Notes under the pieces: generated by a model | The model's database searches: none | What the model was told of the DNA's origin: nothing | What the model saw: only the letters and a program-made list of their open reading frames with translations | Shown: positions 2,510 through 51,550 of the stretch, one piece after another | How the letters are laid out: every line of letters starts with the position of its first letter | Position numbering within the stretch: position 1 is the stretch's first letter | NCBI GenBank assembly: GCA_036172245.1 | Contig: JAYWIR010000107.1 | Coordinates: 124,001-175,610, forward strand | DNA length: 51,610 bases | Direction: 5' to 3' | Source of the DNA: Raillietiella orientalis | Taxonomy: Eukaryota | Program-made: the position numbers and the translations under genes

Positions 2510-3391
2510 TGCGTGCAATTGCCTCTTGCCGGCAGCTGCGTATAGCCTGTTGGAATGTCAACGGGCTGCGTAGCGAAAGCAAGAGGCGTAGCGTTGCCGA
2601 CACCCTGCGACCTTTCGACCTGGCACTTCTTCAACAGGTGCATGACCTCAGAGCAGAGAACGTCCAGCAAATCGAGAGGCTCACAGGACGGAGGATACTT
2701 TGGCGTGGTGGAGGAGACCACTCCCGCGGAGTGGCCTTCCTGCTAAAGCCTGCCGTCGTCAATGCGGTGCGCAGTGCACAGTTCGACGAGGAAGGTCGAG
2801 TCGGACAACTTGTCCTCAAGTGGTCCGAATCGATCGAACTCGTAGTCACGAACCTGTACGCACCTTGTACCAGCCACAGGCGCGCAGAACACACTGCGTT
2901 CTTCGAAGCCCTGCGGCGAGACTGGCTGGCCGAAGCAGGCGTGCGGAGGGCGCATCTCATAGCGGGAGACTTCAACGTTCCCCTGCTGTCGAAAGCGCCC
3001 GACATACGAGCACAATTGGTCAACGAGTTGTGTGCAGCTATACACACACGCAACTTGTTGGCCGATGAAGCCGGGGCGAGAAGCAGAATCGACCACGTGT
3101 TCCTCGATAACCACTTGTGTACGCGGAAGGGACTCGAGGAGCAATTGCGTCGGAGCTGTCCGATCACCCTCGGCTAGTGATCAACATTCATCCGCGAGAC
3201 AGAGGTCCACCCTCCGAAGCGTGGCGCCTGCCGGGGAACTGGTTGCTACTTGCAGGACCGCGCGAACATCTGCGCGCATTCCTGCGTAGTTGCGAACTGC
3301 AGACTCTCGCTGACTGGAACAAAATAAAACGCTCAGTCCGAGAGTTCTGTGACCAGTTTCCCCACCATCAACTTCCTCCAGGATTCGGCGA
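2506..3391 (+). pseudogene. A1 ORF2 N-terminal APE endonuclease, frameshifted and interrupted
   Basis: WNVNG, LQQ (QE motif), NLYAP, GDFN, RIDHVF, SDH motifs in ORFs 2506..3177 and 3117..3422. Confidence 0.9.
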
Positions 3392-6330
3392 TGCCACTCG
3401 GATACGCCGGGACGTTTATTAAAAACATTTCGACGGTCAATACAGAACGTGTTACAAGGCCCCACTGACAGCCACGCAATACCGGAACTTCCGGGACACC
3501 AGGACGCAGCCCGGTGTGGCTCTCCTCGGCAGTGGAGGGGGATATGGGAGAAAACAAAAATTAAGTAAAAGAGAAAAGCAAACCACAAAAAAAAGTTTGG
3601 AGGGCCGCAAAGGGATCACAGAAAACTGCTATGAGCGCCCATCCTTTGCAGGATGCCTTCTAGTTTCATTTTCAGTTTTCCTAGATAGGGCCATCGGGTA
3701 GCTCTCTGCAGGAAGCGAGAAGCATACTCGATGACGTCCCTCACGATGCAGTCTTCATCTTCGTCATCACCCCAGGCCGCCACGATACCACGAATGCAGC
3801 AAAGTGCTGCCAGGGCTGCGGCTGGACTGAGGGCGTCCCGCACGAAGACTGTAAACGCATCTAACGTGGCCACCATCCGGTATCCCAAAAGCCGTTTTAA
3901 GACGATCCCAAAGAATGCGGACGGCAGGGCAATCAACTAACAGGTGGGGGAGCGACTCCCGCTCCCCACACCTGGCACATGCAGGATTTACTCTTCCCCG
4001 CGTCCAGTGGAAGCGGAGCGCGTTGCAGGGTAGACCCCAATGCAGCCACAGAAGCGCCGATTCTTGCCACTTCAGGGGAAGAATCCTGGATCCAAGTAGA
4101 ACCGGGGTCCACTTCAGGTCATCCAATCGAATGCCGAGCAGCTCGCTCCATCTTCTTAATCCATGCGGCTTGAGACTAGGGCTCGTTGCATCTGTCAACT
4201 CTCCCATGGTCCAGCCGCTCATCATCTTCTCTCTGCCTGCGATACGGCAGCAGACTTGCCACCTTGGCATCCGGGTTTCGTGAAGCGCCCTTTGGAGGAA
4301 GGGCATCGCCGTAAAAAGGGGTGTGCCTTCCGCCCACGTGCAACTCGGTGGAAATTCAAGAATTTCACGGAGAGTCCGGCGGGCGTAAAAGCCGACTAGC
4401 AGGCACTTCATCCGGTCTTCGCAGCTCTGGTACTGCTTATTCCAGGTGCCAGGAGTCTCTTCCAGCCAAGCGGAGGAGTTGGCAGGTCCACAAACCATCC
4501 AGTCGTTCTCCTTTGCCAGGGTTGCCATGCGGCCGAGCAGTAGACCGCATCGTCGAATCTTCCGGCCAGAGCACAGAAGAAACGATGCGAGTCCTTCGCA
4601 GCGGGACACAAGCCTGGCCAGGAGGCGGGCCGGAATGCACCAAGCGGTGCTCCACAACTTCGCTGCGATGACGAGGGTCCGCCATCGCAGCTGGATTTCC
4701 ACGCGCTCCAGCGTCACGATGCTGAGACCGCCGTCCCGACGCGGAGCGCATAAGTCCTTCAAAGGGACACAAGGCCTCCCCTTGCCCCAAAGAGCTATTC
4801 GGAGGAGGTAATTCGTCCGCTTTTTTGATTCCACGGGGGCGGGGCAAACAAAAAGCAAGGAACGGAGGATGGGGAGAGCGAAGGCGCTCCAAACCGCGGC
4901 CCGTTCCGGCAAATGAAACTTGCCTTCCAGGAACGGGCCGATCGCCGTCTCGACTTTTTGGAGGCAGTGGACCACGCTTCCGCAGGGGAGAAGTCCCCCA
5001 ACGGCACACCGAGGTACTTGATGCACCTCACCGTGGGGATCCCCAGACGGACCCAGTCCTGCTGCCCTGCCCACGTCACTCGAACTGGCGCCACTGACGA
5101 CTCCGCCCTGTTAACCTGTAATCCGGCCCCACGGCTAAGCAGGTCGAAGAAATCTCCGACCGCCATCGCCGGGGTGGACATAGGTAAGAAGAGCAGAAGA
5201 TCGTCGGCATACGCCGCTACGGCTGGCGTGCGGGGCACGAGCTCGGCAAGGGGGCCGAAGTCACCCTGTACGCTCTCAGCACCAACTCAGTGTAGGTGTC
5301 TAAGAGCAGGGGGCTGAGGCTGTCGCCCTGCCTCATGCTTCGCCGCAGCGCCACGCCATACACCTTTTGTCCACTGAAAGTAATTGAGATCATCGCGTTC
5401 CTCCAGCAAGAGCGCAGGTAGGTAATCAAGGAGGGTGGGAAGCCCATGCGTCCCAGGAGCTCCAAGAGGAGTTCCTGGTCAACACAGTCGAATGCCTTAT
5501 GGAGGTCGACTGCGATCGCTAAGACCCCTTTCCCGCATGAGGGTCCCTACCCTGTCCCACTGGCGACCCCAAAGTAGGGTTGAAAATTTTCCCTTTCCCT
5601 TCTTACTTACTCCGCTGCGCGTGCATCCATGTGCTCGCGAAGAAGAGGTTGTCCTCCATACTTCGCCCGGGAACAGCGTAATTCTGCTCCGGGCCAATTA
5701 TAGAATCGGACATTTGCTTCAATCGCGACGCCCACAGCCCGGCAATCAACTTGGCGTCGGTGTTCAGAATCGTGATCGGACGCCAGTTGCAAAGTTTCCT
5801 GAGGTCTCCTCCCTTCGGGCGGAGCCTCACTTTGGCTGACCGAAACGAGGCGGGAACATCGCCTTCGTCTCGGATTCGCCTTGTCAACTCGAGCACCAGG
5901 GGGGCCAGCTTTTCCGCGAAACTCTGAAAGAACTCTGCGGGCAAGCCGTCCTCCCCTGGCGCCTTACGCCTCTTGAGCCTTTTGATACCGGCGAGAATTT
6001 CACCGGTCGAGAAAGCCTCATCGAGGCTTTCTCTCTCCTCCTCCCTTATCGCCACGCAACCACTCATGAGCAATCGCCGCGAGTCGTCTTGTTCGGGTGG
6101 TGTTTTGGCGTAAAGGGAGGAATAAAAACACCGCACGGAATTCCGTACAGCAGACGGGGACGAACGTTCCCGGCCCAGGTCATCCAGCATGCTGCCTGAC
6201 CCGGATTGCAAGGCTTGTCGCTCGGCTCCGGTTGGGTATTCGGCCAGGCGACGGACATTGGGGTTCCTCTCGTGACGACGCGCGTGCAAATACGCGCGTT
6301 CGTTGCGAGCCCTTCGCCGAAACCCTTGGC
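3392..6330 (-). mobile_element. Family D LINE copy D1, 3' part (linker, RT, C-terminal zinc finger, 3' UTR, terminal hairpin)
   Basis: KAPGEDG, WRPITILN, QGDSLSP, YADD, KYLG, CARCGERESLPHLLVDC; U-rich 3' UTR then AATAAA-CGTCCCGGCGTATCCGAGTGGCA. Confidence 0.9.
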
Positions 6331-6420
6331 GAGTGGACGTGTGTTTCCTTCGCTCCCGAGTGAGTCGACAGGAAGCGGTTTTTTCTTGTGTTGTTTGGTG
6401 TGGAACATCGTTGGTGTCCG

Positions 6421-8168
6421 ATGGCAGCGATGCCTGAGGACACCACGATGGAGGTAGGTGTGGAAGAGGCTTGCCCACCTTCACAGCCTACAGAATCAGG
6501 GGCGTCCGCCCCGGAATCGCTCTCGCAGCCCATGGCGAGGAGCTGGAGCGCCATGGTGGCCGCGCCGAGCGCGGTAACCGTGACCGAGATGGCGGCCTAC
6601 CGGGCAGCTGGTTACAAGCCCAGCTTGGTATACCAGGTAGGCCCCTTATTTGATGGAAAAACGGCACGCGTGTTTACGAAAGCGCTGCAAAACGCCGGAG
6701 TAAGAGAACAAGATTTTGACGGTTTGTCCGTTCTCAGCGGAGGTCAGCGAGTCAAGGTGGTGTGCAAGGAGATCACCTTGGCTCAGACTCTGATCACCAA
6801 CCCGCTGAACGTCGACGGCCGCAAGATCTTGCCGGTGACGATGGACCGCTCCGTGGTGGTCCATCTCACTGGAATAACGAGCCGTATCACTCGCTCTGCG
6901 GTAGCACAAGAACTTCGGAAGTTCGGCGAGGTGCACGCGCTGTGGCCTAAGACAACAAACTTTCAAGGCTTCAATAGCCATTTCGGAAGCCAGGCTGCAG
7001 CGCGGGTGACAGTGAGTAAGGATTGTGGGCTTCCTTACAAGCTGGAGGTCGCGCAAGAGAGCGTGGACCTCTGGTACGTGGGAAAGCCCCGGTATTGCGG
7101 CTACTGCGATACCGTAGGACACCTTCGCAAGGGGTGTCCTAACATCCAATGCGACATGTGCGGGGAAAAGGGCCACGTTCGACGTGTGTGCCCAAAACGC
7201 CCTATCCCGGTTCCTCTTGCCGCTAAAAAGGCGCAGGGTAAACGCGCACTAAAGGTCAAAAAACCTAAGGCGGACGCTGGCCGGCTGAAGCTGCCAGATC
7301 CTCAACCTCCAAAAGAGAAGACGGAGGATAAACCTTCCCAAGAGGCGGAAGGTGAAGAGGGCTGACAACATGTAGCAGCCAGAAAAAACATTAAAGCTCC
7401 TTGAAAGGAAAAGAAAGAGAAGCCGGCCGGTATGGTAAATAAACCCGGGCCGCGTTCGAAAACCATACGCGAGTTCACGGTGGCACTGGAACGTATCGTC
7501 GTACCGGAAGATGCCACCCGGGGCGACGAGCCTCCCCTCGCCGTTTCCGTCGCGCCCGAAGTTCGTGACGGCGAACCCTCTGTGCAAACAGAGGGTGAGC
7601 CGCGCGACGCGCCGGTCGACACCGAGGACGCCGCGTTCGCAAAGGCGGCGGAGGAGCTCGCGGCCACCCTGGCGTACCGTGAGAACCCCTCACGCAAGGA
7701 CGTGCGAAGGTCGGCTCCCGCGAAAAAGGCCCCCACAGGTGAGTCGGACGTGGGATCCGGAAGTGCATCCTCCTCCTCGGAGGCACCCCCCAGGAAGTCG
7801 GGACGCAAGTCCCAAAAACCCAGCTGGCGCCTCCCCTCCACCAGCGAGGACGAGAAGCAGGAAGCTAGCGGTAGCGTTGTAATCCCGGAGGGGGAACTCC
7901 CACGCTCGGAAGCCGTCGAGCCGGCCACCCCCATGGAGAAGGGTGAGCAGGGGGGCGAAGTGCTCCCTGCAGTCGCGAGCCTGAACAGCTCGCCCCCATG
8001 GAGGAGGGCCAACAGGTAGGCGCGACCCCACCTGAGGGTGACCCGCTCGAAGGGCCGTTACCCATGGAGGAGGGGGACCAGGTGCACGCAGCGCCTGACC
8101 CTCCTCCTCCACCTAGCGTCCCGCCAAAACAGGTGGCGGACGCCGCATCGCCATCTTCCCAGGATTAA
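6421..8168 (+). pseudogene. B1 ORF1, two CCHC knuckles, disrupted
   Basis: CGYCDTVGHLRKGCPNIQCDMCGEKGHVRRVC; stop at 7363-7365 replaces a Trp codon; terminal TAA 8166-8168. Confidence 0.88.
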
Positions 8169-9879
8169 CACCTGGGCTCGCCAGTCGCCGTCGGATTCGC
8201 GCCGCCTCTTGGAACTTCAACGGGCTGCGCGACGACGGTAACTGACGAGATACGGCCGACACCCTGCGTGAGTTCGACCTGGCCCTGCTGCAGGAGATCA
8301 ACGTGATCACCGCAGCAGACGCCCAGGAGATCGAGACGATCGCGGGGGGTCGGCTGTACTGGCGATGCGGCCTCCGCAACACCTGCGGGGTCGCGTTCTT
8401 CGTGAAGCCGGCCATCGACGCTGCCGTGAAGTGCGTGCGCTTCGATGACGACGGTCGGGACGGTCAACTGATTCTCAGCTGGTCCGACTCGATCGAACTG
8501 ATCGTCACGAATGTGTACGCCCCCAGCGGTAAACAGGGATACAGCGACCGTACCAGGCTGCTGGAATCCCTGAAGCGCGACAGGCTGGCGCACACGAACG
8601 TGCGAAAGGCTCACCTGATAGTTGGAGATTTCAATCTCCGCCTGCCAGCAGGTGAGCCAGAAACACAAGACAACGCGATGAATGAGTTGTGCGCCGCCAT
8701 GCGTGCGCGCAACTTGTTCGCGGGTGAGAGGGGAATGGTCCGCAGCATCGACCACGTCTTCCTCGACGCTGACCTGTGTTCACGAGTCGGCAAACGGGTG
8801 AGGGTTGTGTCGACGTTGTCGGACCATTCCCGGTTAATTTTCGAGATGCGGCCTCGCGACAAAGGACCGCAATCCAGGGATTGGCGTCTGCCGGGGGACT
8901 GGACGCGACTCTCAGGTGCGAAGAAACACCTTCGCGAATACCTGAGAGGCGTCACGCTCCGGATTCTCCAGGATTGGCACATTTTTAAGCAATTGGTCCG
9001 CGAGTTCTGTGAGCAGTTCCCCCTGGATCGCCTGCCCTGCGGATTCCGCGACGGTGCTCGCAACCGTCGGGCCTATCTACAGGCTCGTTGGTACGAGAGA
9101 ACCCCTAATGTCCGTCGCCTGGCCGAGTACCGCGCCGGGGCCGAATGCCAAGCCTGACAATCCGGGTCGGCCAGCTTGCTGGACGACCAGGGCCGGGAAT
9201 GTTCGTCCCCGGCTTCGGTACGGCATCTCGTGCGGAGTTTTTATTCCTCCCTTTACGCCAGTCAGCACCCGGATCGACACGCTTCTTGGCGCTTGCTTCC
9301 GGATGGCGCCCCGGCAATAGGGGAGAAGGAGATGGAAAGCCTCGAAGAGCCTTTTACCACCGGCGAAATTCTCGCCGGTATCAAAAGGCGCAAGAGGCGT
9401 AAAGCTCCAGGGGAAGACAACTTGCTCGCGGAGTTCTTTCAGACCTTCGCGGGAGAGCTGGCACATCTGCTGCCTAAGTTGATCAGGCTGATCCGAGACG
9501 AAGGCGATGTTCCCGCCTCGTTACGGTCATCCAGAGTGAGGCTCATTCCGAAAGGGGGAGACCTCAGGGATTTGAAGAACTGGCGTCCGATCACGATCAT
9601 GAATACGGACGCCAAGTTAATAGCAGGGCTATGGGCTTCGCGACTGGGGCAGGTGGCAGAATCCGTTATTGGCCCGGAGCAGACTTATGCTGTTCCCGTG
9701 CGAAGTATGGATGCCAACCTCTTCTTCGCAAGCACATGTGTGCACCTGCAGAGAAGAGGAAAGAGAGGGATAGAGAAAGTCGGCAACCTCACATTGGGGC
9801 GGCCAGCCGGGCTGGAAAGGGACCCCCGGGCGGGGAAGGGGGCCCTTGCACTCGCAGTCGATCTCCACAAAGCGTTCGA
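8168..9879 (+). pseudogene. B1 ORF2 5' part (APE + N-terminal RT)
   Basis: WNFNG, LQE, NVYAP, GDFN, SIDHVF, SDH, KAPGED, WRPITIMN, DLHKAFD. Confidence 0.9.
9866..9879 (+). repeat. Target-site duplication copy 1 (CACAAAGCGTTCGA) flanking family C insertions
   Basis: 13/14 match to 15439-15452 and 44437-44450; directly abuts the C1 3' end. Confidence 0.88.
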
Positions 9880-10101
9880 TTTTCACCCGGATTTCGCCGG
9901 GGCGTTTATTGTGAAATAAACTTTTACAAAGACGTGCGGTGGCTGCACCATTGCTCCAGCCACGCACGAAGAAACACAGAGCCTACCGGGTCACCGGTTC
10001 GCAGACCGGTACGGTCCACCACGGCATCAGAAGGAAGGAGAAAAAACAAAAAAAAACAAAACAAAAAAAAAAAAGAAAAGTTGGGAGGGTAAGGGTAGGG
10101 A

Positions 10102-15344: not shown

Positions 15345-15438
15345 CGCTGCATGATCGACCACCGAACCACACGACGCTTGCACTGGGGGAGACTTCCTGG
15401 CACGAGGAGCACGGCGAAAACACGTCCGCCATAGAGCG

Positions 15439-15452
15439 CACAAGGCGTTCGA
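15439..15452 (+). repeat. TSD copy 2 (CACAAGGCGTTCGA) between tandem C1 and C2
   Basis: Lies exactly between the C1 5' end and the C2 3' end. Confidence 0.9.
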
Positions 15453-17543
15453 TTTTCACCCGGATTTCTCCAAGTCGTTTATTAAAAATTAAACTTTGTA
15501 TACAAATTATTAATAACTGTGGCAATGCTCCAGCCAGAAGCTAAGGACCACGGCGTCTGCCAATTCACCGGTGTCTAGACCGGTACGGTCTACCAAGGCA
15601 GCAGAAGAATGGGGAAAAACAAAAAAAAAAAAACTAAACAAAAAAAAACAAAGGTTGGGAGGGAACGGGAAGGGATCACTGTTGCTGCTGGGGCCGCATC
15701 ATCCCTCTCAGGATGCTGGCAAGCTCTTGTTTGTTGTAAACAGCCAGGTGGGGCCATCGCGACGCCCTCTTCAGGAATTCGGAGGCGCACTGGATGGCTT
15801 CCTGATCGTTAGGTTTTCCCGGCGCCGTGCTCCAGGCAGCGACGGTCCCACGAAGGCAGCACAAGGCTGCTATCGAGGACGCTGTCCGCAGGGCGTCGGC
15901 AACGAAGAAGGCTTTTAATGCGTTCCTGAGGTTTCTGCAAGGGATACCGATGGCTGCGGCAAAGCGGAACCAAAGTAGCCGAACTGCAACACAATCCACT
16001 AGGAGGTGGGGGAGGGACTTCGTACCCTGCACCTTACACAATTTGGATCCACCGCTCCCCAGGTCCAGTGGTGTCCACGGGCGTTGCAGGGGAGTCCCCA
16101 GTGCTGCAACAGGAATGCCGACTCTTGCCATTTTAGGGGGAGGATGAAGTGTTCATAAGAATCGGGGGCCACTTCAGATGTTCAATCGGAACATTCAGCA
16201 GCGCTCCCCAGCGCAGAAGTCCATTAGGAGGCGTACTCGGGGACGCAGCATCAGTTAGCTGGCCCGTCTTCCGCTCTCTCTGCTTCTCCTCTTTCCCGGA
16301 GATTTTTATTGTAACCTCCCACTTCGCCGCAACATCGCTGTCCTGATGTTCCACTAGAGAGTCCAGCGCAGCAGCGAGGGGTGTTCTTCCTGACCATGCT
16401 CTCTACTTAGGATCCTCCAGGATTTCACGGAGCGTGCAACTTCTGTAACACCCAAACAGGAACCTTCGTTCCTGATGGGAGGAATGCATGCCGAACTGTC
16501 CCCACGTACGAACGGTTTTCTGCAACCAGGCACTACCGTTTGCGGGGAGACAGGTGATCCATTCTTGATTTTTCCTTGTCTGCGCAGCCACCCTCCGTAG
16601 CTGAAGCCCACATTGGTTGATGCGGCTTCGATGGAGTGCAAGAAACGACGTAAGTCCCGTCTTGCCGGTGGCTCTCTGAAGAAGGAGACGTACAGGGACG
16701 CACAACAGGTGCACCACAACTCCGGCACAAGTGTTAAACTCCGGAACTGGAGCTGCAGCTCCAGCCGCTCCAATGTCAGGAGGCCGAGACCAGCGTCCCG
16801 ACGCGGAGCGCACAAGTCCTTCAAGCGGACTTGGGCCCTCCCGTTGCCCCAAAGGGCGATACGGAGGAGGTCCTTCGCCCACTTTTTGATCCTCTCTGTA
16901 GGGGGGCAAACAAAAAGCAGGAAACAAAGGAGAGGAGCCGCGAACATGTTCCAAACCGCGGCCGGTACAGGCAGGAAACCCTCCCGCCTCGGAACGGGCC
17001 GATAGCCGTATCTACTTTTTGAAGGCAGCCGGACCACGCTTACGCAGGGGAGTAGTCCCCCAACGGCACACCAAGGTACTTGAAGTACCTCACCGTGGGG
17101 ATCTTCAAAGGGACCTAGTCCTGCTGCCCTGCCCACGCCGCACCAACTGGCATCACGGACGACTTCGCCCTGTTCACCGTAAGTCCGGTTCCCCGATGCA
17201 GCAGGTCGAAGAACTCCTCGACCGCCGAAGCCGGGGTGGACATAGGGAGCAGTAGCAGGAGGTCGTCCGCATATGCTGATACCGCAGGCGTTCCGGCGCA
17301 TTCATGTAACAGGTGCGCCAGAGTTTCCCTGAACCATTTCAGTACCAACTCAAAGTAGGAACTGAAGAGCGAGGGGCTCAGGCTGTCTCCTTGCCGGATT
17401 CCACGTCGCACAGGCACGCCGTGAACAGTATGCCCGCTGAAAGTAACATTGATTAGCGCATCGCGCCAGCTAGAGAGCAGATAGGCCAATAATGAGGCCC
17501 GGAAACCCAAGCGTTCCAAAAGCTCCAGCAGGAGATTCTGGTC
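15453..17543 (-). mobile_element. Family C LINE copy C2, 3' portion only
   Basis: RT QGDSLSP/YADD (ORF 17115..17519), C-terminus and 3' UTR colinear with 9880-11970. Confidence 0.9.
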
Positions 17544-17580
17544 TAATAATTAATAAACGTCTTGGCGTATCCGGGTGGCA
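17544..17580 (+). mobile_element. 37-bp remnant of a family D 3' terminus
   Basis: TAATAAACGTCTTGGCGTATCCGGGTGGCA matches the D ends at 3392, 36646, 38917 and 47028. Confidence 0.8.
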
Positions 17581-35905: not shown

Positions 35906-36645
35906 GCTGCAGCGCGGGCGTGGAGTGCCGTCGTGTCGGCGCCATCGCCTGCAGCCGCGGCGGAATTATCTGCCTATGTAGAAGAGAAGTATACCCCATC
36001 GCTATTCTACAACGTAGGAAATTTGTATTCTTCTGAGAGTCCGCGCGCCCTTTCGCAGGGGATGCGCGCTCTCGATATTAAAGAGGAGTAGCGATGCGCG
36101 ATAACCATTCGTAGCGGGGGCAATGCGTAGAGGTTATCTGCAAACACGCAGATCAGGCCCAACATCTGCTCAAAACATCAGTGGTGATGCGGACACGCAG
36201 GCTCCTTCCCATTACGGCGGACCACAGTATGGGGGTCCACCTTTCAGGAGTTACCGCGCGGATGCGGAAAGAACAATTACGCGCCGCGTTGGGAAAAGAA
36301 GGCACGGACCATGCAGTATGGACCAAGCCTAAACCTTTCGAGGACTATTCTACAGTTCAGCGCGGCCTCACGGCTGCCCGTGTAACCGCACGAAAAAGCT
36401 CTACCCTGCCCCACAAACTGCTGGTCGGCAAAGAAAGCGTCTACCCCTGGTACGTGGGGAAGCCCAAATACTGTGGCTTCTGCAACACGTCGCAACACCT
36501 CAAAAAAAGGTGCCCCAACGTACAGTGCAGGTATGAGAGACAATAAGTCACTCGAGAGAAGTGTGCCCACAAACCGCTGTGAGCGTGGTTTCCGCGAGGA
36601 ACCTGAAGAAACGCGCGCGGCTGCTACAGAAAACGCTGGAAGCGA
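35906..36645 (+). mobile_element. C/F-type ORF1 fragment
   Basis: ARAWSAVVSAPSP..., WYVGKPKYCGFCNTSQHLKKRCP, NLKKRARLLQK; colinear with C ORF1. Confidence 0.85.
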
Positions 36646-37921
36646 TGCCACCCGGATACGCCGGGAAGTAGATTAAAAACATTTCTACAGTCAATACAGA
36701 ACGTGGTACAAGGCCATACTGACGACCACGAAATACCGGAACTGCCGGGACACCGGGAAGCAGCCCCGTGTGGCTCTCCTCGGCAGTGAAAGGGAATGAA
36801 GGAGAAAACAAAAATTAAATTAAAGGAGAAAAACAAACAACAAAAGGAGTTTGGTGGGCCGGGAAGAGATCACAGACATCTGCTAGGAGGGCCCATTCAT
36901 TGCAGGATGCCTTCGAGTTCCATTGTCATTTTTCCCAGATGGGACCATCGGGTAGCTATTCGGAGAAAGCGAATAGCATACTCGATGACGTCCCTCACGA
37001 TGTAATCTTCATCTTCGTCATCACACCAGGCCGCCACGATACCACGAATGCAGGACAGTGATGACAAAGATGCGGCTGGACTGAGGGCGTCCCGCACGAA
37101 GACAAGAATGTAAACGCATCTAACGATGCCATAATCCGGTAACCCAAAAGCCGTTTTAAGACCATCACAAAGAATCTGGACGACAGGGCAATTAACTAAA
37201 AGGTGAGGGATCGACTCCCGCACCCCACACCTTGCACACGCGGGATTTACACTTCCCCGCGTCCAGTGGAAGCGGCGCGCGTTGCAGGGTAGACCTCAAT
37301 GCAGCCACAGAAGCGCCAATTCTTGCCACTTCAGACGAAGAATCCTGGATCGAAGTAGAACCGGGGGCAACTTCAGATCATCCAATCGAATGCCGAGCAG
37401 CTCGCCCCATTTTCTTAATCCACGCGGCTGGAGACTAGGGCTCGTTGCATCTGTCAACTCTCCCATGGTCCAGCCGCTCATCATCTTCTCTCTGCCTGCG
37501 ATACGGCAGCAGACTTGCCACTTTCGCTTCCGGCTTTCCTGAAGCCCCCGTTGGAGAAAGGGCATCGCCGTAACAAGAGGAGTGCGTTCCGCCCACGTGC
37601 AACTCGGAGGAAATTTAAAAATTTCTCCCAGAGTTCGACAAGCGTAAAACCGGACTCGCAGGCAGTTCATGCGGTCTTCTTACCTCTGGTTCTGCTTGGC
37701 CTCGGTGCAAGCAGTCTCCTCCAGCCAAGCGGAGGAGTTGGTGGGGCCACAAACCAATCAGTCGTTCTCCTTTGCCAGAATTGTCATGCGGCCGAGCACT
37801 AGACCGCATCTTCGAATCTTCCGGCCAGGGCACAGAAGTAACGATGCGAGTCCTTCGCAGCGGGACACACGCTTAGCCAGGAGGCGGGTCGGAATGCACC
37901 AAGCGGTGCTCCACATCTTCG
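36646..37921 (-). mobile_element. Family D copy D2, 5'-truncated
   Basis: Colinear with 3392-4660, including 3' UTR and perfect terminal hairpin. Confidence 0.9.
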
Positions 37922-38916
37922 GTTGCAGACGTTCCGGTCGTTGCCGAAACGCCACCACCGCAGATGGACAACGACCAGCCGCCTCCCGAACAGGAGGCGG
38001 AAATACACACGCCACCATCATCACTAGTATGATGCGTGAAATCGCCTCTTTCCTGCAGCTGCGTATAGCCTGTTGGAATGATAGCGGGCTGCGTAGCAAA
38101 AGCAAGAGGCGTAGCGTGGCCGACACCCTGCGATCTTTCGATCTGGCACTTCTTCAACAGGTGCATGCCCTCAGAGCAGAGGACGTCCAGGAAATCGAGA
38201 GGCTCACAGGACGGAGGATACTTTGGCGTGGTGGAGGAGACCACTCCCGCGGAGTGGCCTTCCTGCTAAAGCCTGCCGTCGTCAATGCGGTGCGCAGTGC
38301 ACAGTTCGACGAGGAAGGTCGAGTCGGACAACTTGTCCTCAAGTGGTCCGAATCGATCGACCTCGTAGTTACGAACGTGTACGCGCCCTGCACCAGCCAC
38401 AGGCGCGCAGAACGCACTGCGTTCTTCGAAGCCCTGCGGCGAGACTGGCTGGCCGAAGCAGGCGTGCGGCGGGCGCATCTCATAGCGGGAGACATCAACG
38501 TCCGCCTGCTGTCGGAAGCGCCCGACATACGAGCACAATTGGTCAACGAGTTGTGTGCGGCTATGCACACACGCAATTTGTTGGCCGATGAAGCCGGGGC
38601 GAGAAGCAGAATCGACCACGTGTTCCTCGATAACCACTTGTGCACGCATGTTGCGTTCTCGAGGAGCAATTGCGTCGGAGCTGTCCGATCTCCCTCGGCT
38701 AGTGATCGACGTTCATCCGCGCGACAGAGGTCCACCCCACGAAGCGTGGCGCCTGCCAGGAGACTAGTTGCGTCTCGCAAGAGCGCGCGAACTTCTGCGC
38801 GTATTCCTACGTAGTTGTGAACTGCAGTCTCTCGCTGACTGGGACAAAATAAAACGCTCAGTCCGAGAGTTCTGTGACCAGTTTCCCCTCCATTAACTTC
38901 CTCCAGGTTTCGGCGA
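37922..38916 (+). mobile_element. Family A copy A3 (ORF1 end + APE), cut at the same linker site
   Basis: Near-identical to 2400-3391; ends GGTTTCGGCGA|. Confidence 0.92.
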
Positions 38917-40490
38917 TGCCACCCAAATACGCTAGTACGTTTATTAAAAACATTTCGACGCTCAATACAGAACGTGGTACAAGGCCCCACTGACGGCCAC
39001 GCGATACCGGAACTGCCGGGACACCGGGACGCAGCCCGGTGTGGCTCTCCTCGGCAGTGGAAGGGGATGGGAGAGAAAACAAAAATAAAATAAAAGAGAA
39101 AAACAAAATACAAAAAAAAGGTTGGAGGTCCGGGAAGGGATCACAGAAAACGGCTGGGAGCGCCCATCCTTTCCAGGATGCCTTCTAGTTCCATTTTCAG
39201 CTTTCCTAGATGGGGCCATCGGGTAGCTCTCTGCAGGAAGCCAGAAGCCTACTCGATGACGTCCCTCACGATGCAGTCTTCATCTTCGGTATCACTCCAG
39301 GCCGCCACGATACCACGAATGCAGCAAAGTTCTGCCAGGGCAGAGGCTGGACTGAAGGCGTCCCGCACGAAGACAAGACTGAAGACACATCCAACATTGC
39401 CACAATCCGGAGGGCCGTTTTCAGACGATCCCAAAGAATCTGGACGGCAGGGCATTCAACTAAGAGGTGGGGGAGCGACTCTCGCTCCCCACATCTGGCA
39501 CACGCATGATTTACTCTTCCCCGCGTCCAGTGGAAGCGGCGCGCGTTGCAGGGTAGACCCCAATGCAGCCACGGAAGCGCCGATTCTTGCCACTTCAAAG
39601 GAGGAATCCTGGATCCAAGTAGAACCGGGGGCCACTTCAAGTCATCCAATCGAATGCCGAGCAGCTCGCCTCATCTTCCTAATCCACGCGGCTGGAGACT
39701 AGGGGTCGTTGCATCTGTCAACTCTCCCATGGTCCAGCCGCTCATCATCTTCTCTCTGCCTGCGATACGGCAGCAGACTTGCCACCTTGGCTTCCGGCTT
39801 TCGTGAAGCGCCCTTTGGAGGAAGGGCATCGCCGTAACAAGGGTTGTGCCTTCCGCCCACGCGTTACTCGGTGGAAATTCAAGAATTTCACGGAGAGTTC
39901 GGCGGGCGAAAAAGCCGACTCGCAGGCAGTTCATCCGGTCTTCGCACCTCTGGTTCTGCTTGGCCAAGGTGCCAGCAGTCTCTTCCAGCCAAGCGGAGGA
40001 GTTGGCAGGTCCACAAACCATCCAGTCGTTCTCCTTTGCCAGAATTGTCATGCGGCCGAGCAGTAGACCGCATCTTCAAATCTTCCGGCCAGGGCACAGA
40101 AGAAACGATGCGAGTCCTTCGCAGCGGGACACAAGCCTGGCCAGGAGGCGGGCCGGAATGCACCAAGCGGTGCTCCACAACTTCGCTGCGATTGCGAGGG
40201 TACGCCATCGCAGCTGGATTTCCACGCGCTCCAGCGTCAGGATGCTGAGACCGCCGTCCCGACACTGAGCGCACAAGTCCTTCAAAGGGACTCGGGGCCT
40301 CCCCATGCCCCAAAGAGCTATACGGAGGAGGTCCTTCGTCCGCTTTTTTGATTCCACGGGGGCGGGGCAAACCAAAAGCAAAAGGCGGAGGATTGGGGCC
40401 GCGAAGGCGTTCCAAACCGCGGTTCCTTCCGGCAAGTGAAACTTGCCTTCCAGGAACCGGCCGATCGTCGTCTCGACTTTTTGGAGGCAG
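38917..40490 (-). mobile_element. Family D copy D3, 3' portion, fused to C3
   Basis: Colinear with 3392-4967. Confidence 0.9.
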
Positions 40491-43400: not shown

Positions 43401-44436
43401 CCGGGGTCTCGGGTGCGGCCTGGGTCTTGGGCGCGGGTGGCACAGCTTTCGCGGCAGCTTTCGCCGCCAGTCTTTTCTGCAGAAGCCGGGCACGTTTTTT
43501 AAGGTTTCTCTTGGAAACCACCCGCACTGCTGCTTTTGGGCACACCTCCCTCGTGTGACCCATTGTGCCGCATACTTGGCACTGCACTTTGGGACACCTC
43601 TTTTTGAGGTGGCCCGACGTATTGCAGAAGCCACAGTATTTCGGCTTCCCCACATACCAGAGGTCGACGGTTTCGCCTTCGACCACCAGTTTGTGGGGAA
43701 GAGTGCAGCCCTCCCGAACGGTCACGCGCGCAGCAGTAAGGCCGTGTTGCAGCCCCGTGTAGTCCTCGAAAACACTAACTTTCGTCCACTGCGCGTGGAC
43801 CGTTCCAAACTGTTCCAAAGCGACGCGAACCTGTTCTTTGCGCATTCGCGCGGTCACGCCTAACAGGTGGACCACCATGCTGTGGTCCGCCGTAGTGGGG
43901 AGAAGCCTGCGCGTCCCCATCACAACGGGGGTTTTAAGCAGTCGTTGGGCCAGCTCTGTATGTTTGCAGATGACCTCAACGTACTGACCCCCGTTGCGGA
44001 TGGTCATAGTGCTGAGCTCCTCCTCTTTCACAACGAGAGCGCGCATGCCCTTCAAGAAGGCGCGCGCGCTCTCTAAAGAATATAAATTGCCTACCTTGTA
44101 GAACAATGAGGGGTTGTACCCCTCCTCTACATAGGCCGACAGTTGCGCCGCGGCTGCAGGCGATGGCGCCGACACAACGGCGCTCCACGCCCGCGCTGCA
44201 GCGGAGACTCATTCTGGGGGGCGGATGCCCCCACCTCCATCGCTTCTAAGGGCGACGTTGCCGCCGCCCCCTGGCTCTCCATCGCCTCTGGGGGCGGCGT
44301 TGCCGCTGCCCCCTGGCCATCCCTGGTGGTCGTGTCAGGCATCGCTGCCTGATCGACCACCGAACCACACGACACTTGCACTGGGGGAGACTTCCTGGCA
44401 CGAGGAGCACCGAGAAAACACGTCCACCCTAGAGCG
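40491..44436 (-). mobile_element. Family C copy C3, 5' end to RT KYL motif
   Basis: Colinear with 11500-15438; same 5' terminus abutting the TSD. Confidence 0.92.
42667..44342 (-). pseudogene. C3 ORF1, best-preserved ORF1 in the window (467 aa open)
   Basis: ORF 42772..44175 with CGFCNTSGHLKKRCPKVQCQVCGTMGHTREVC; frameshift near the N-terminus, stop at 42772. Confidence 0.88.
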
Positions 44437-44450
44437 CACAAGGCGTTCGA
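44437..44450 (+). repeat. TSD copy 3 (CACAAGGCGTTCGA), continuing into host RT (HKAFDCVDQELL)
   Basis: Abuts the C3 5' end; restores the RT frame broken at 9879. Confidence 0.9.
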
Positions 44451-46505
44451 CTGTGTAGACCAGGAACTCCTCTTGGAGCTCCTGGGTCGCATAGGGTTTC
44501 CACTCTCCCTGATTTCCTACCTGCACTCTTGCTGTCGAAATGCGATAATTACCGTCTCTTTCAGCGGTCACAAGTTTCATGGCGTGCCGGTGCGACGGGG
44601 CATAAGGCAGGGAGATAGCCTCAGCCCCCTGCTCTTCAGAACCTACTTTGAGTTGGTGCTGTGAGCGTACAGGATGACTTTGGCCCCATTGCCGAGCTCG
44701 TGCCCCGGCACGCCTGCCGTAGCAACGTACGCCGAGGATCTTCTGCTCTTGTTGCCAATGTCCACCCCGGCAAAGGCGGTTGCAGACTTCTTCGAGCTGC
44801 TCAGCCGCGGGACCGGACTGCAGGTTAACAGGGCGAAGTGGTCGGTTGTGCCAATAGGTGCGGCGTTGGCAGGGCAGCGGGACTCGGTTTGTCTGGGGAT
44901 CCTTACGACGAGGTGCTTCAAGTACCTTGGAGTGCCGTTGGGGGACTACTCCCCTGCATAAGCGTGGTCCACCTGTCTCCAAAAAGTCGAGACGGCGATC
45001 GGCCAGTTCCTGGAAGGCAAGTTTCACTTGCCGGAACGGGCCGCGGTTTGGAACGCCTTCGCGGCCCCCATCCTCCGCCCCTTGCTTTTTGTTTGCCCCC
45101 CACCGTGGAATTCAAGAAGAGGACGAAGGATCCTCTCCGTATCGCCCTTTGGGGCAAGGGGAGGCCCCGAATCCCAATGAAGGACTTGTGCGCTCCGCGT
45201 CGGGACGGCGGTCTTGGCCCCCTGACGCTGGAGCGCGTGGAGAAGCAGCTGCGGTGGCGAACCCTGGCCATCGCAGCGAAGATGTGGAGCACCCCTTGGT
45301 GCACTCCGGCGCTCCTCCTGGCCAGCCGTGTGTCCGGTGCGATGGACTCGCGTCTTTTCTTCTAAGCCGTGGCCGGAAGATGCGAAGATGCGGCCTTCTG
45401 CCCGAGCGCATGGCAACATTGGCCAAGGAGAACAGCTGGATGGTTTGCTGCCCCGCCAACTCCCCCGCCTGGCTGGAGGAGAATATTGGAACGTGGGCAG
45501 TGGTTAACCAGAGAAACCACGAGACGTGCAATCGTCTCCGATGCAGCCCCTACGAACGCTGCACGCCGCGGAATCTCCTGGAGAGTCCAGCAAGATGCAG
45601 GTGGGCATAGACGACCTGCCTAGCTACGGCGCTGCCCTTCCTGAGGAGGGCACTTCACAGCAGCCGGACGACGTGGTGGCAAGTCTCCTGCTGCATCGAG
45701 GGACGGGAGAAGTTGATTAGCGGCTGGAAAACAGGAGAACTGGCCGACGCCACGACCCCGAGCGTCCAGCCGCGAGGGTTATTAAGATGGGGCGAGCTGC
45801 TCGCTATCCCCAGGGATGAGTTGAAGTGGCCCCCGGTGATGAAAGAATCCAGGATCCTGCTTCTCAAGTGGCAAGATTCGGCGTTGCTCCTGTTGCACTG
45901 GGGTCTACCCTGCAACGCGCGGCTTCCACTGGACGAGGGGAGCTGTGGATCCTGCGTGTGCCAGGTGCGAGGAGCGGGAGTCTCTCCCCCACTTTATTGC
46001 GGAGTGTGCTGCCCTATAGCCTCTTTGGGAACGGTTTGGGACGACCATCGGGCTCCCTGCGGGCAGCACTCCCAGAGAGGTTCTTCGGCCCCTCTTCGTG
46101 AAGGACGCACTGCAGCCCGCCGCAGCCATCGCAGCCTTGTGCTGCGTCCGTGGCATCGTGGCGGCATTGAGCGACGCCAACGACGAAGAAGTGGGTCCAC
46201 AGGCGAGAGATGTCGTCCCGTATGTCCAACGCTTCTTGCGAAGAGCTGCCGGATGGCCCCAATTGGGGAATATGCAGACTGAGCTCTAGGGCTTCTTTCG
46301 ACGGATGGGCCCTCCTCACAGCGACCAGTGATCCCTTCCCCGCCCTCCAACTTCTTTTTGTTTGTTTCTTTTTATTTTTCTTTTTGTCTTAACCCCATCC
46401 CCCTTCGCTGTCGGGGAGTGCCACGCCGGGCTGCGTCCCGGTGTCCCGACAGGTCGCGTGTTTACGGCCGTGGTGGGGCCTCGTACCACGCATGTAGAGT
46501 TTACA

Positions 46506-46536
46506 AATAAACGCTCCGGGCGTTCCCGGATGACAA
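46506..46536 (+). promoter_or_regulatory. AATAAA plus 3'-terminal stem-loop (representative copy); putative RT recognition or 3' processing signal
   Basis: TCCGGG-CGTT-CCCGGA; equivalents at every A, C, D and G 3' end. Confidence 0.65.
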
Positions 46537-47021
46537 CGCCGAATACCCGGGGCAGACGTTGCACAGGAAACTGTTCGCGGAACTCACGGACCGAGTCCTT
46601 AAATAGGTCACAATCCGCGAGACTCTGCAGGGTGACGCCTCGCAGGAATTCGTGAAGATGTTCTTTCGCTCCTGACAGGCTCGTCCAGTCCCCTGGCACA
46701 CGCCAATCCCTGGATGGCGGTCCCTTGTCGCGCGGCGCATCTCGAATAATAACCGGGAATGGTCCGACAGCGTCGATCCAACTGTCCTTCGTTTTCCGAC
46801 ACGTGTGCACAGGTCTTCGTCGAGGAAGACGTGGTCCACGCTGCTGACCATCGCGTGTATTTCTGTCAACAAGTTGGGCGCGCGCATGGCGGCGCAGAAC
46901 TCGTTGATCGCGTTCCTCTGTGCTCCGGGCTGATCTAAGAGCATGCGGACGTTGAAGTCCCCTGCTATCAAATGCGCCTTTCGCAAGTCCGCGTCCACCA
47001 GCCATTCGCGCTTCAAGGTTG
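46537..47021 (-). mobile_element. APE/linker fragment interpreted as the upstream part of D1 (5'-truncated)
   Basis: GDFN, SVDHVF, SDH, ...QFPVQRLPRVFG| which joins to |GFGEG.RNERAYL at 6330->6290. Confidence 0.78.
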
Positions 47022-47027
47022 TCGGCG

Positions 47028-48580
47028 TTGCCACCCGGATACGCAGGGACGTTTATTAAAAACATTTCATCGGTCTATACAGAACGTGGTACAAGGCCCT
47101 ACTGACGGCCACGCAATACCGGAACTGCCGGGACACCGGGACGCAGCCCGGTGTGGCTCTCCTCGGCAGTGGAGGGGGATGGGGGAAAAAACAAAAATAA
47201 AATAAAAGAGAAAAACAAACCACAAAAAAAACTTTGGAGGGCCGGGAAGGGATCACAGAAAACGGCTAAGAGCGCCCATCCTTTCCAGGATGCCTTCTAG
47301 TTTTATTTTCAGCTTTCCTAGATGGGGCCATCGGGTAGCTCTCTGCAGTAAGCGAGAAGCATACTCGATGACGTCCCTCACGATGCAGTCTTCATCTTCG
47401 GTATCACTCCAGGCCGCCACGATACCACGAATGCAGCAAAGTGCTGCCAGGGCAGAGGCTGGACTGAGGGCGTCCCGCACGAAGACAAGACTGAAGACAC
47501 ATCCAACATTGCCACAATCCGGTATCCGGAGGGCCGTTTTCAGACGATCCCAAAGAATCTGGACGGCAGGGCATTCAACTAAGAGGTGGGGGAGCGACTC
47601 TCGCTCCCCACATCTGGCACACGCATGATTTACTCTTCCCCGCGTCCAGTGGAAGCTGCGCGCGTTGCAGGGTAGACCCCAATGCAGCCACGGAAGCGCC
47701 GATTCTTGCCACTTCAAAGGAAGAATCCTGGATCCAAGTAGAACCGTGGGCCACTTCAAGTCATCCAATCGAATGCCGAGCAGCTCGCCCCATCTTCCTA
47801 ATCCACGCGGCTGGAGACTAGGGGTCGTTGCATCTGTCAACTCTCCCATGGTCCAGCCGCTCATCATCTTCTCTCTGCCTGCGATACGGCAGCAGACATG
47901 CCACCTTGGCTTCCGGCTTCCGTGAAGCGCCCTTTGGAGGAAGGGCATCGCCGTAACAAGGGGTGTGCCTTCCGCTTACGTGCAACTCGGTGGAAATTCA
48001 AGAATTTCACGGAGAGTGCGGCGGGCGTAAAAGCCGACTCGCAGGCAGTTCATCCGGTCTTCGTAGCTCTGGTTCTGCTTGGCCCAGGTGCCAGCAGTCT
48101 CTTCCAGCCAAGCGGAGGAGTTGGCAGGTCCACAAACCATCCAGTCGTTCTCCTTTGCCAGGGTTGCCATGCGGCCGAGCAGTAGACGGCATCTTCGAAT
48201 CTTCCTGCCAGGGCACAGAAGAAACGATGCGAGTCTTTCGCAGCGGGACACACGCCTAACGAGGAGGCGTGCCGGAATGCACCAAGTGGTGCTTCACATC
48301 TTTGCTGCGATGGCGAGGGTCCGCCATCGCAGCTATATTTCCACGCGCTCCAGCGTCAGGATGCTGAGACCGCCGTCCCGACGCGGAGCGCACAAGTCCT
48401 TCAAAGGGACTCGGGGCCTCCCTTTGCCCCAAAGAGCTATGCGGAAGAGGTCCTTCGTCCGCTTTTTTGATTCCACGGGGGCGGGGCAAACAAAAAGCAA
48501 GGCGCGGAGGATGGGGGCCGCGAAGGCGTTTTAAACCGCGGCCCGTTCCGGCAAGGGAAACTTGCCTTCCAGGAACGGGC
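47028..48580 (-). mobile_element. Family D copy D4, 5'-truncated
   Basis: Colinear with 3392-4938; ORF 47253..47948 zinc-finger C-terminus. Confidence 0.9.
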
Positions 48581-51550
48581 TGGCTGCGAAGGCTTGAGGA
48601 ATGACCGGAACTATCTCCACGCCCGGCGATTCTCCTACAAGCGCGACGTCAATCGCCTGGCGAAGTTCAAGGTTGGAGCTGAGAGGCAGGTCTGGTAATT
48701 CTTGTCTGTCTGCTTACTTGACGAAGAAGGCCAAGAGCACTTATCTCCAGCGCAGGTTTGATGCATTTTGCGAGATATCTGCTCCTTCTTTACGCAAATA
48801 GAACACCAGAGCGCTTTTTTGCGCAGAGTCTGCTGCCAAAGGGTGCCCCCGCGTTAAGGGGGGAGGAACCACACACCGTTCAACTGGTATTTACGATGGG
48901 GGAGATTGTCTTCGCCATCGAAAAACTGGAAAAGAACAAAGCACCAGAGGAAGACGGCCTTCCAGCTGAATTCTACCAACACTTTGCGGCAGAGTTGGCT
49001 TCCCTGGTGCTCAAATTGTGTTTGCCAATCCTTGAACGCGGGGTTGTCCCCAATTCGTTCCAGTCAGCTAGAGTACGTCTCCTACCTAAGGGAGGAGACT
49101 TGCGCAACTTTGGCACCTGGCGTTCCATCACTGTGGTGAATGCGGACGCAAAGTAGCTCTTGAAATTCTGGGCTGAGCGTCTGGGACGGGTAGCGGAATC
49201 CGTGGTCAGTCCGGAACAGACTTACGCTGTTCCCGGAAGAACCGTGGAGGCCAACCTGTTCCTCGCCGGAACCTTTTGGCAGTTGCAACAACGCGAGGCT
49301 CGGCTAGGTCGGGAAAGTCCTGGACTCTTTAATGACCTGGGGGAGGGAAGCCAGGGAGAGGAGGCGGCGCCTGGAGCCATTGCGGTCGCAGTCGATTTGC
49401 GTAAAGCTTTCGATTGCGTCAACCAGGAGCTCCTTCTGGAGCTACTAAAACGCCAAAGTTTCCCTGCCGTCTTCCTGGCGTACCTGCGTTCCTGCTGGCG
49501 CTTTGCGCTAATTAACATCAAATTCAGCAACCGGCATGTGTACGGCGTGCCGGTTCGTTGCAACATTCTGCAGGGTGACAGCCTGAGCCCCCTGCTCTTC
49601 AGCATCTACTTCGAGTTGGTGCCGAGCTCTTGTCCTGCACGTTTGCTGTGTCGGCTTATGCCGACGACCTTTGGCTTCTGTTTCACGGATCCACCCCGGC
49701 ATCGGCGCTTGAAGATTTCTTTGAGTAGCTGCACCGTAAGACAGGCCTTGAGGTAAACAGGACGAAGTCGTCGTTAGTTCTAACGGACACATCGCGAACA
49801 GCACGGTCGGAATGGATCCGCTTGGGGATCCCCACAGGCGGGTACATCAAGTACCTGGGCGTTCCGTTTGGGGACTTCTGCGCTGCAAAAGCGTGGTTCG
49901 ACCGTCTCCAAAAGGTGGAGTTGGCTATCGGCCCGTTCCGGGACAGCAAGTTTTACTTGCAGGAACGGGTTGCGGTGTGGAACGCTTTTGCGGCCCCCCT
50001 TTTCCGCCCCCTACTTTATGTATGTGCCATACCTCCTTAAATTCGACAAAGGACAAGGAGCCTCATTAGAAAAGCCCTCTGGGGCAATCGGAGGCCCCGC
50101 GTCCGTCTTAAAGACTTGTGCGCTCCACTCAGGGACGGTGGAGCTGGTCTCCTGACGCTGGAGCGCATGGAGCGACAGCTCCAATTCCGTAAACTTGCCC
50201 TTGTGGCAAAGTACTGGACCGTACCCTGGTGTGCACCTTTACGACTCCTGGCTCACAGGGCAACCGGCTGCCATGGATTGACCTCAATCCTAGTAGCCAA
50301 CGACCGCAGCCTCAGCCACTGTGGTTTTCAGCTGCAAGAATTGGTTGCCCTGCTGAGAGACAATCCGTGGTTCTCCTGCATCCCAGTGGACTGGACTACC
50401 TGGCTCCAGGAAACCGTTTCCGCATGGGCTAAAATCAACGGCTCCAGCGATGAGGACTTCTGCCTCCGTAGAGGCAGGCACGCTGATCAGCCACTGCAGG
50501 AGATCGTTAGCAGCCCACGGAAGATTCTGTTGGCCTCCTTTACCCCTCTTGCCCCGGTGCTGCCCTCCCTCAGGGAAGTTCGGAACAGCCAGCAGGAGGC
50601 TTCGTGGGAAGTGTTCTGCATCATGAAAGGCAGGAAATAATTATTAAAGGCATGGACGTATCGGGAACTAGCGGACCTTAGTACCCCGAGTGTCCTGCCA
50701 AATGGACTTTCACGCTGGTTCGCGCTGCCCGAAGTACCTCCAAAGGAGGTGAAGTTGCCAAGGCGTCGTGGGATAACGGCACCCTTCCCCTGCAGTTGCA
50801 GGAGACGGCGTTGCTTCTGCTCCATTAGGGACTGCTAAGAAGTGCGCGCTTGTCTCACTGGACACAGGGGAGTGTGGATGCTAATTGTTTAGACTGTGGG
50901 GAAAGAGAAACCTTTCCTTACTTAATCACTGAGCGCGTTGCCCTTCGCGATATGTGGGTCCGACTCTCGTCGATCGTGAACATTCCGCGTGGTTACCCAA
51001 AGAACATTTTTCGACTCCTGATGCGGGATGTTTCTCCAGATTCCGGGTGTGTAGCAGTGCTCTTTTGTATTTGCGGTATACTGGACAAGTGAACCGCGTC
51101 AAGGAGAGGACATGCCAGTCGGAATGCTATCCACTGGGCAACCATCTCCTTGGATAAGGCCTGCGGTTGGTGCCGACTAGGAAAACACTTACAAGCACTC
51201 GTCCGCATCCGTGACCGGATGCTGAGGCCTCCTCACGGCGTACCGTGATTCCTTCCCTTCCCTCCCCCTTTCGAATAACATTGCCCCCTTAGGCGTTTTC
51301 TTTTTTTTTTTTTTTAATTTTTGGTTTTCCTTGCCCCTACGCGAGTATAGAGGACTTTATCGGCCTTCGGGTTGGCAAGAACAAGTGCCGGAAGACATTC
51401 GGGCCATATGTTCCGACTTAAAAACAAGAACAACAAGTACAAAAAAAACAAACAAACTATGAAATGTTTTTGTGTATCAATATGAAATGTTTTTGTGTAT
51501 TTTGAAAAAATTTTAATAATGAAAGCCCCGGCTCACCCGGGTCGAAAAAA
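48579..51550 (+). mobile_element. LINE 3' half beginning exactly at the linker target site; interpreted as the 3' half of family A
   Basis: Starts AG(C)EGLRNDRNYLHARR; KAPEEDG, KAFD, QGDSLSP, YADD, KYLG, CLDCGERE; stop ~51246-51248; CCCGGCTCACCCGGG then A6. Confidence 0.85.
51458..51500. repeat. 20-bp direct repeat in 3' UTR
   Basis: TATGAAATGTTTTTGTGTAT at 51458 and 51481. Confidence 0.85.

Follow-up and report, generated by a model that had tools for sequence, protein, structure and literature searches.

Two related families of long interspersed elements (LINEs), D and B, have landed repeatedly and in inverted orientation at one nucleotide of other LINEs in a stretch of the Raillietiella orientalis genome (assembly GCA_036172245.1, contig JAYWIR010000107.1, positions 124,001 to 175,610 of the forward strand). 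This 51.6-kb stretch, analyzed over its whole length of 51,610 nucleotides and called the window below, contains 54-61% G+C and consists almost entirely of copies of retrotransposons that lack long terminal repeats (non-LTR) and belong to the apurinic/apyrimidinic endonuclease (APE) type. A tblastn map, for which the window's own frames served as queries, resolved about 17 LINE fragments on both strands, with the order open reading frame 1 (ORF1), endonuclease (EN), linker, reverse transcriptase (RT) and C-terminal region. The names H (for host), A and E given to the other families are our own labels.

The window was searched with the terminal sequences of both families. The D terminus (..GCGTATCCGGGTGGCA) was found in exactly five copies, at 3392, 36646, 38917 and 47029 on the minus strand and at 17580 on the plus strand, and the B terminus (..CCCGGATGACA) in one, at 46535 on the plus strand. 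Five of these six 3' termini are directly followed by WCGCCGA, the complement of TCGGCGW. This word occurs 19 times on the two strands of the window; for independent events, the binomial probability that five of six termini would fall on it by chance is about 1e-18. Four of the junctions lie at homologous P-x-G-F-G codons in the EN-RT linker of the host LINE, every insert being antisense to its host, and the fifth (47029) falls within the same site of H1, adjacent to the 7 nt TCGGCGT. The longer word GG(A/T)TTCGGCGA is present four times in the window, each time at a D or B junction; in the hosts the site (GG(A/T)TTCGGCGA or GG(A/T)TTCGGCGAAGG) encodes G-F-G-(E/D), between EN and RT. Each of the D copies in linker sites is followed by TCGCCGAA. 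The heptamer TTCGGCG itself is not enriched (12 observed versus 12.3 expected, with 7 of the 12 unoccupied), which shows that the signal lies with the junctions rather than with the abundance of the word.

Whether a linker is occupied is predicted by whether it holds the site. All four LINE copies with TTCGGCG in the linker (H1, H2, H3 and D1) carry an insert there, and an insert is found in none of the five copies whose linker is readable and lacks the heptamer, namely A1 and A3 (GGGTTTTGGGACC), B (GGATTCCGCGACGG), E13 (GGATTTGTGGAGG) and E10 (GGCTTCGAAGAGG). The D1 linker is a perfect site, and B's own linker, with the variant TTCCGCGAC, is two bases off target. The TTCG-G-CGAA core forms a 9-bp palindrome; symmetric nicks would give a 7-nt TCGGCGA, as between D1 and D2, but the B duplication measures 12 nt.

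Flanks and reading frames order these insertions into a three-level nest, in which H1 contains D2 and D1, D1 contains B, and B contains A elements (Table 1). The EN of H1 matches Exo_endo_phos at 6e-13 over 2320-3174 (Pfam), and the H1 frame restarts at 48580/48581 as ..GCGAAGGCTTGAGG / ..GCGAAGGCTTGAGGAATGAC, which reads (E)GLRND. D1 and D2 are arranged in tandem within one H1 site, both antisense to H1. D1 is 5'-truncated near 47021, within its own endonuclease domain, and its 3' part is traversed by one open frame (3770-5110). It is split by B at its linker site, which reads ..CCCCGGGTATTCGGCG before the insert and GGGTTTCGGCGAAGGGCTC after it; the two halves of D1 are collinear and a duplication of 11-12 bp, GGGT(A)TTCGGCG, stands on both flanks of B (GGGTATTCGGCG / GGGTTTCGGCG). 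B is itself broken in RT motif A, with RT residues 1-217 at 9218-9880 and residues 213-382 at 44437-44946, and the break is filled by A-family elements. Of the D and B copies in the window, B alone has a complete EN domain, which carries frame breaks.

Much of this arrangement had been proposed in an initial annotation made from the sequence alone. It had placed the D 3' ends at GGATTCGGCGA (3381-3391, plus strand), at GGTTTCGGCGA (17591-17581, minus strand; 38906-38916, plus strand) and at TCGGCG (47022-47027), the B 3' end (46535) next to GGGTATTCGGCG on the minus strand, ending at 46537, and the B 5' end (6326) next to GGGTTTCGGCGA (minus strand, 6325-6314); these coordinates are correct, and the host does resume in the same peptide, as had been stated. 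The proposal that B and D are related is supported by their identity (82-87% for the RT region, 66-75% across the last 1.2 kb at the 3' end and 77% for the C-terminus of the EN) and by a common 3'-end plan. Their common specificity was likewise recovered, as both insert antisense at the same site in homologous linker codons, and D does carry the site and was hit by B, as seen from the interrupted D1. The annotation had further described a degenerate target-site duplication of about 16 bp: the duplication exists, but is better taken to be 11-12 bp long in B, with about 7 bp in the case of D.

Table 1. Positions of the elements, target sites and duplications in the window.
Feature	Position	Strand	Remarks
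H1 5' part (5' untranslated region (UTR), ORF1, APE endonuclease, linker to LPPGFG)	828..3391	+	tblastn; ends after CTTCCTCCAGGATTCGGCGA
H1 target site GGATTCGGCGA	3381..3391	+	ends at the proposed nick
H1 3' part (linker, RT, C-terminal region)	48580..51546	+	3' end ..CCCGGCTCACCCGGGTCGAAAAAA
D1 3' part (linker, RT, C-terminal region, 3' UTR)	3392..6313	-	3' end ..GCGTATCCGAGTGGCA at 3392
Right copy of the B-made duplication in D1, GGGTTTCGGCGA	6314..6325	-	then AGGGCTCGC (EGLA..)
D1 5' part (EN C-terminal third to LPRVFG)	46537..47021	-	ends GGGTATTCGGCG at 46537, the left duplication copy
7-nt TCGGCGT, D1 5' end to D2 3' end	47022..47028	+	target-derived remnant
D2, 5'-truncated D copy, 1551 nt	47029..48579	-	second insert in the H1 site
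B 5' part (full-length 5' end, ORF1, EN, uninterrupted linker GGATTCCGCGACGG, RT to motif A)	6326..9880	+	
B 3' part (RT from motif A, C-terminal region)	44437..46535	+	3' end ..AATAAACGCTCCGGGCGTTCCCGGATGACA / ..GGATGACA
H2 5' part, second H copy	17581..20180	-	ends GGTTTCGGCGA (17591-17581)
D3, D-type 3'-end remnant, 31-37 nt	17543..17580	+	adjoins the H2 site; other side is the A2 5' end
H3, third H copy (EN residue 28 to linker)	37924..38916	+	ends GGTTTCGGCGA (38906-38916)
D5, D-like 3' part, 1574 nt	38917..40490	-	adjoins the H3 site
D4, D copy at another target	36646..37921	-	after ..CTGGAAGCGA in ORF1 of an A-like element
15-bp A duplication, three copies	9866-9880, 15439-15453, 44437-44451		
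3' ends examined	3392, 9881, 15454, 17580, 36646, 38917, 46535, 47029, 51546		

The 3' ends of D, B, A and H are built on one plan: AATAAA(CG) (AATAAACG), a GC hairpin of 5-6 bp (CCCGG..CCGGG) placed 4-9 nt before the element end, and a short tail, which is TGGCA in D, TGACA in B, TGAAA in A (3' end ..AATAAACGCCCCGGCGAAATCCGGGTGAAA) and TCGAAAAAA in H. A poly(A) or A-rich tail is absent from all four families, only H ending with six A. RNAalifold predicted five pairs on these 3' ends, two of them with a compensatory change; with so few pairs and so little covariation, the predicted hairpin is to be regarded as a motif and not as a proven structure. The shared 3' design fits a stringent type of 3'-end recognition. 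A poly(A) tail is not universal in the L1 group, which includes stringent lineages (PMC3472496).

Junction anatomy, nesting order and the link between site and occupancy are direct observations. Complete 3' ends at the same host nucleotide, a single orientation, upstream duplications and variable 5' truncation make up a signature which points to target-primed reverse transcription started by a nick that follows GGCGA in the coding strand of the host. We therefore consider it probable that D and B insert by site-specific target-primed reverse transcription between GG(A/T)TTCGGCGA and the following A, with a sequence-specific endonuclease and possibly with pairing of a read-through RNA. In such a mechanism, the D/B machinery would nick the coding strand of the host LINE after GG(A/T)TTCGGCGA, and the freed 3' OH would prime cDNA synthesis from an element RNA ending in AATAAA, the short GC hairpin and TG(G/A)CA, without poly(A). 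Priming from a nick in the coding strand would make the insert always antisense to its host. A second nick 7-12 nt upstream would then yield the duplication. Any LINE copy with the site would be a target, D included, and repeated hits would build the succession of H1, then D2 and D1, then B.

The analogy with the APE-type element Tx1L suggests that a sequence-specific APE endonuclease makes the nick, and this enzyme would be the determinant of specificity. The site could instead be set by RNA, if a weakly specific EN (cutting at about GCGA, before A) were guided by pairing of the nicked ..TTCGGCGA-3' end with read-through RNA ..GGCA-UCGCCGAA.. transcribed from source copies already lying in such sites. 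R1/R2-type elements provide a precedent for pairing of read-through RNA with the target. The TCGCCGAA that follows every linker-site D copy means that read-through transcripts would hold the complement of the target end, the 7-nt ACGCCGA between D2 and D1 could be RNA-templated, and the off-site D4 junction shares only the 4 nt GCGA. The longer, 12-nt upstream duplication of B and the strict GG(A/T)T context favor recognition by a protein outside the paired stretch, and we regard specificity through RNA pairing as unlikely. Read-through RNA with UCGCCGAA may nevertheless pair with the nicked DNA as part of the endonuclease-directed mechanism that we prefer.

Several observations weigh against recurrent, site-specific insertion. 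A perfect TTCGGCGAGG at 6922, in ORF1 of B, is unoccupied, and D4 lies after ..CTGGAAGCGA, which has only GCGA in common with the linker site. The empty site at 6922 and the off-site D4 indicate that the recognition rule is neither fully sufficient nor fully strict. The duplication on the right flank of H1 is degenerate (CTGCGA versus CGGCGA), and the 5' flanks of D3, D4 and D5 do not continue the host of their 3' flank. The H1/D1, H3/D5 and H2/D3 junctions share both flanks, the H copies being 91-93% and the D copies about 92% identical, so that part of the recurrence could reflect copying and not re-insertion. Finally, all the evidence comes from one 51.6-kb window.

The shared flanks would be explained if a single ancestral H/D junction had later been copied, by segmental duplication or by retrotransposition of a D-carrying H. 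Alignments do cross the junction (828-3422 versus 20180-17550, 89%; 2401-6312 versus 37924-41776, 83%; 17550-18576 versus 38947-37920, 91%), and host and insert have diverged to a similar extent (H1-H3 93.1%, D1-D5 92.3%). Copying of one junction cannot yield B inside D1, where insert and host belong to different families and both junctions and the duplication are present, nor can it bring a second D copy into the site of H1. The D inserts also differ in extent (>4.4 kb, 1551, 1574, 31-37 and 1276 nt) and in their 5' ends, the D-like part of D5 reaching at least 33 nt beyond the 5' end of D2. In addition, D2 and D5 are 95.1% identical, compared with 92.3% for D1-D5 and 92.7% for D1-D2 (62 versus 98 differences, Fisher p = 0.003), and the copies adjoining H1 and H3 are therefore not sister copies. 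The 5' flanks of H1 and H2 differ as well. The initial annotation had named one ancestral junction as the case that would overturn it; B in D1 and the D2-D1 tandem are separate events, and such copying could merge at most two of the five junctions. We consider it improbable as the general explanation. Independent hits number at least three (B and the two D insertions in H1), and more probably five.

As a further alternative, the junctions could have arisen through errors of assembly, or through ectopic recombination among LINE copies scattered over a repeat-rich region. The region does hold chimeric copies, such as D5, with a D-like 3' part, a 92% A-like 5' part and a 47-nt gap at the joint, and the 5' flanks of D3 and D4 do not continue the 3' host. 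Neither mis-joining nor recombination would bring element 3' termini, intact through their final base, to a single nucleotide of a host frame five times, with the same orientation each time and with duplications, which makes this explanation highly improbable. Among sequencing runs, one DNA run, X1, was listed as containing 9% of the sampled words, and no RNA run was listed. Over 36000-51610, the contigs of X1 gave 438 short pieces, mostly less than 95% alike and too short for a test of the assembly; among the pieces listed, no joint or loose end was seen at 38916, 46536, 47028 or 48580. Twin priming was considered for the inverted H/D structure and rejected, since it is the 3' end of D that adjoins the inverted partner, rather than the 5' end. 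When metagenome contigs were searched with a 17-nt terminus-plus-target pattern, 120 stretches were found; none of the 80 that were compared had blastn or tblastx similarity to the window, indicating chance matches in unrelated DNA.

H1 and H2, which are 89% identical over 828-3422, are each complete at the 5' end but stand next to different 5' flanks, which indicates separate H insertions. The 5' end of H2 (20178-20181) adjoins a truncated ORF1 of another family. H1 itself stands head to head with a 5'-truncated H-like RT fragment (9-805, minus strand; 82% identical to the H1 RT), at a distance of about 20 bp (805-828). D3 adjoins A2 at the 5' end of the latter, which lies 9 nt beyond the RT motif A of A2 itself, and the D-like part of D5 meets A3 almost collinearly: its joint with this A-like element, at 40490/40491, lacks 47 nt when compared with the two parents. 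The apparently full-length element at 38917-44436 (minus strand) is thus a chimera, with a 3' part of 1574 nt that is 92-95% D-like and another 4 kb that is about 92% A1-like. D4 (junction stretches 36642-36661 and 37915-37930) is joined at its truncated 5' end to H3 at EN residue 28, with CG..TGC microhomology, which implies either a rearrangement or a deletion linked to the insertion. The odd flanks of D3, D4 and D5 would result from deletions that accompanied insertion, or from subsequent recombination of neighboring LINEs. Two other arrangements were discarded. An inversion between H1 and H2 as inverted repeats, proposed as the cause of the odd flanks, leaves the junctions unchanged, and A2 was ruled out as the 3' part of A3 by an overlap of about 530 nt in A1 coordinates, although it could be the 3' part of H2.

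A parallel case of targeting is given by family A, which is present three times, antisense, in RT motif A of B, at the H-K-A-F-D codons (CACAARGCGTTCGAY). Its 15-bp duplication occurs in three copies: one adjoins the 3' end of A1 (9881), a second separates A2 from the full-length 5' end of A1, and the third is found where A3 begins with a full-length 5' end (44436). These copies make up three of the four GCGTTCGAY words in the window; the fourth (20690, minus strand) is unoccupied, and so are the seven remaining occurrences of the motif, with the sequence GCATTCGA or GCTTTCGA. A2 has its 5' end (17543-17545) 9 nt downstream of its own KAFD codons, at the A target position, where it adjoins D3, either by coincidence or perhaps through another targeted event. 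Two further divergent LINE families with different 3' ends lie within the nest, E11 at 25922-31000 (plus strand) and E10 at 21560-25235 (minus strand); the protein identity of E11 to the other families is only 27-40%.

Domain searches detected Exo_endo_phos and RVT_1 across many frames (Pfam). Exo_endo_phos (PF03372) was above the cut-off in 6 of the 40 frames scanned (E 6e-13 to 1e-5), with a seventh match, in frame 41832-42839, below it, and RVT_1 (PF00078) was matched at E 1.4e-20. The best PDB match of the RT was human L1 ORF2p (6.8e-32), R2 being matched at 7e-12 or weaker. For the EN, the best match among solved structures was the human L1 endonuclease (1.6e-5), and R1Bm and TRAS1 EN gave no match at E <= 0.01. 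A protein search with the RT frame returned a single relative with 69% identity, on a 2.9-kb JGI contig that begins past the linker; the remaining matches were 24-34% identical and mostly plant L1-like ORF2s, which carry PF03372, PF00078 and PF13966 (24-30% identity for the best named ones). A protein atlas search with the same frame gave generic RT clusters only, and no Tx1 protein was present among the named database matches to the window frames. The window elements are best classed, by EN and RT similarity, as L1-group APE-type non-LTR retrotransposons. Duplications with variable 5' truncation, a trait of the L1 group, are present as well (11-12 bp in B, 15 bp in A, a 7-nt remnant in D; five D lengths).

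The behavior of D and B is a variant of known Tx1L-like and Zepp-like behavior and not a new kind. The accounts of Tx1L and Tx2L of Xenopus laevis describe insertion at one site inside the DNA transposons Tx1D and Tx2D (PMC1950540; PMC6719617), and Tx1L is there an APE-type LINE whose endonuclease was shown biochemically to be sequence-specific (PMC1950540). Like Tx1L, D and B are APE-encoding non-LTR retrotransposons aimed at a specific sequence inside another transposable element, and the insertion at one defined sequence of a multicopy target that marks the Tx1 clade is seen in the five of six D/B termini at WCGCCGA. Unlike Tx1L, which targets a DNA transposon, they are aimed at coding sequence in other LINEs, close relatives and members of their own family among them, and several sister families with different targets lie here in one nest.

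As excerpted in PMC8226300 and PMC3446292, the L1 elements Zepp and ZeppL of green algae insert into earlier copies and form nested clusters of mostly 5'-truncated copies at putative centromeres. The succession of H1, D1/D2, B and A is likewise an L1-group cluster nested by insertion into earlier copies. Those passages name no nucleotide-precise target motif for Zepp, whereas the window elements insert antisense at exact nucleotides. The window elements also differ from Zepp in being a guild of families and in having no poly(A). Zepp has a poly(A) tail. With R1/R2-type elements they have in common the nucleotide-precise insertion in a multicopy sequence, defined duplications or deletions, a dispensable poly(A) and a structured 3' end; they differ in that their EN and RT match L1 ORF2p and that the target is a retrotransposon ORF2 and not an RNA gene or a simple repeat. 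The target classes of site-specific non-LTR elements set out in a part of PMC4640811 include 'transposons'. A literature search, with subscription literature and Repbase reports outside its scope, found no report of LINEs that target a coding site of other LINEs.

Together, these results could be an indication that sister L1-like families form a guild in which each has a target, precise to the nucleotide and specific for the strand, in a conserved coding motif of rival LINEs, a reading that we offer tentatively and hold to be rather doubtful. D and B would use the G-F-G-E codons of the linker and A the H-K-A-F-D codons of RT motif A, with an occasional second site for D in ORF1. If this is true, LINEs parasitize and disable one another and escape by one- or two-base changes of the site, as in the TTCCGCGAC linker of B; this would be an arms race between transposons that also gives the host genome a safe haven. 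Outside ribosomal DNA, small RNA genes, telomeres and simple repeats, site-specific LINEs are rare, and they are sought as natural tools for safe-harbor insertion. Related families with different short, exact targets would allow a comparison of which changes in the endonuclease or in the 3' RNA re-aim an APE-type LINE. The nest would be a clear case of transposons whose niche lies in other transposons' coding sequence, and this would explain how such nests grow without hits to host genes.

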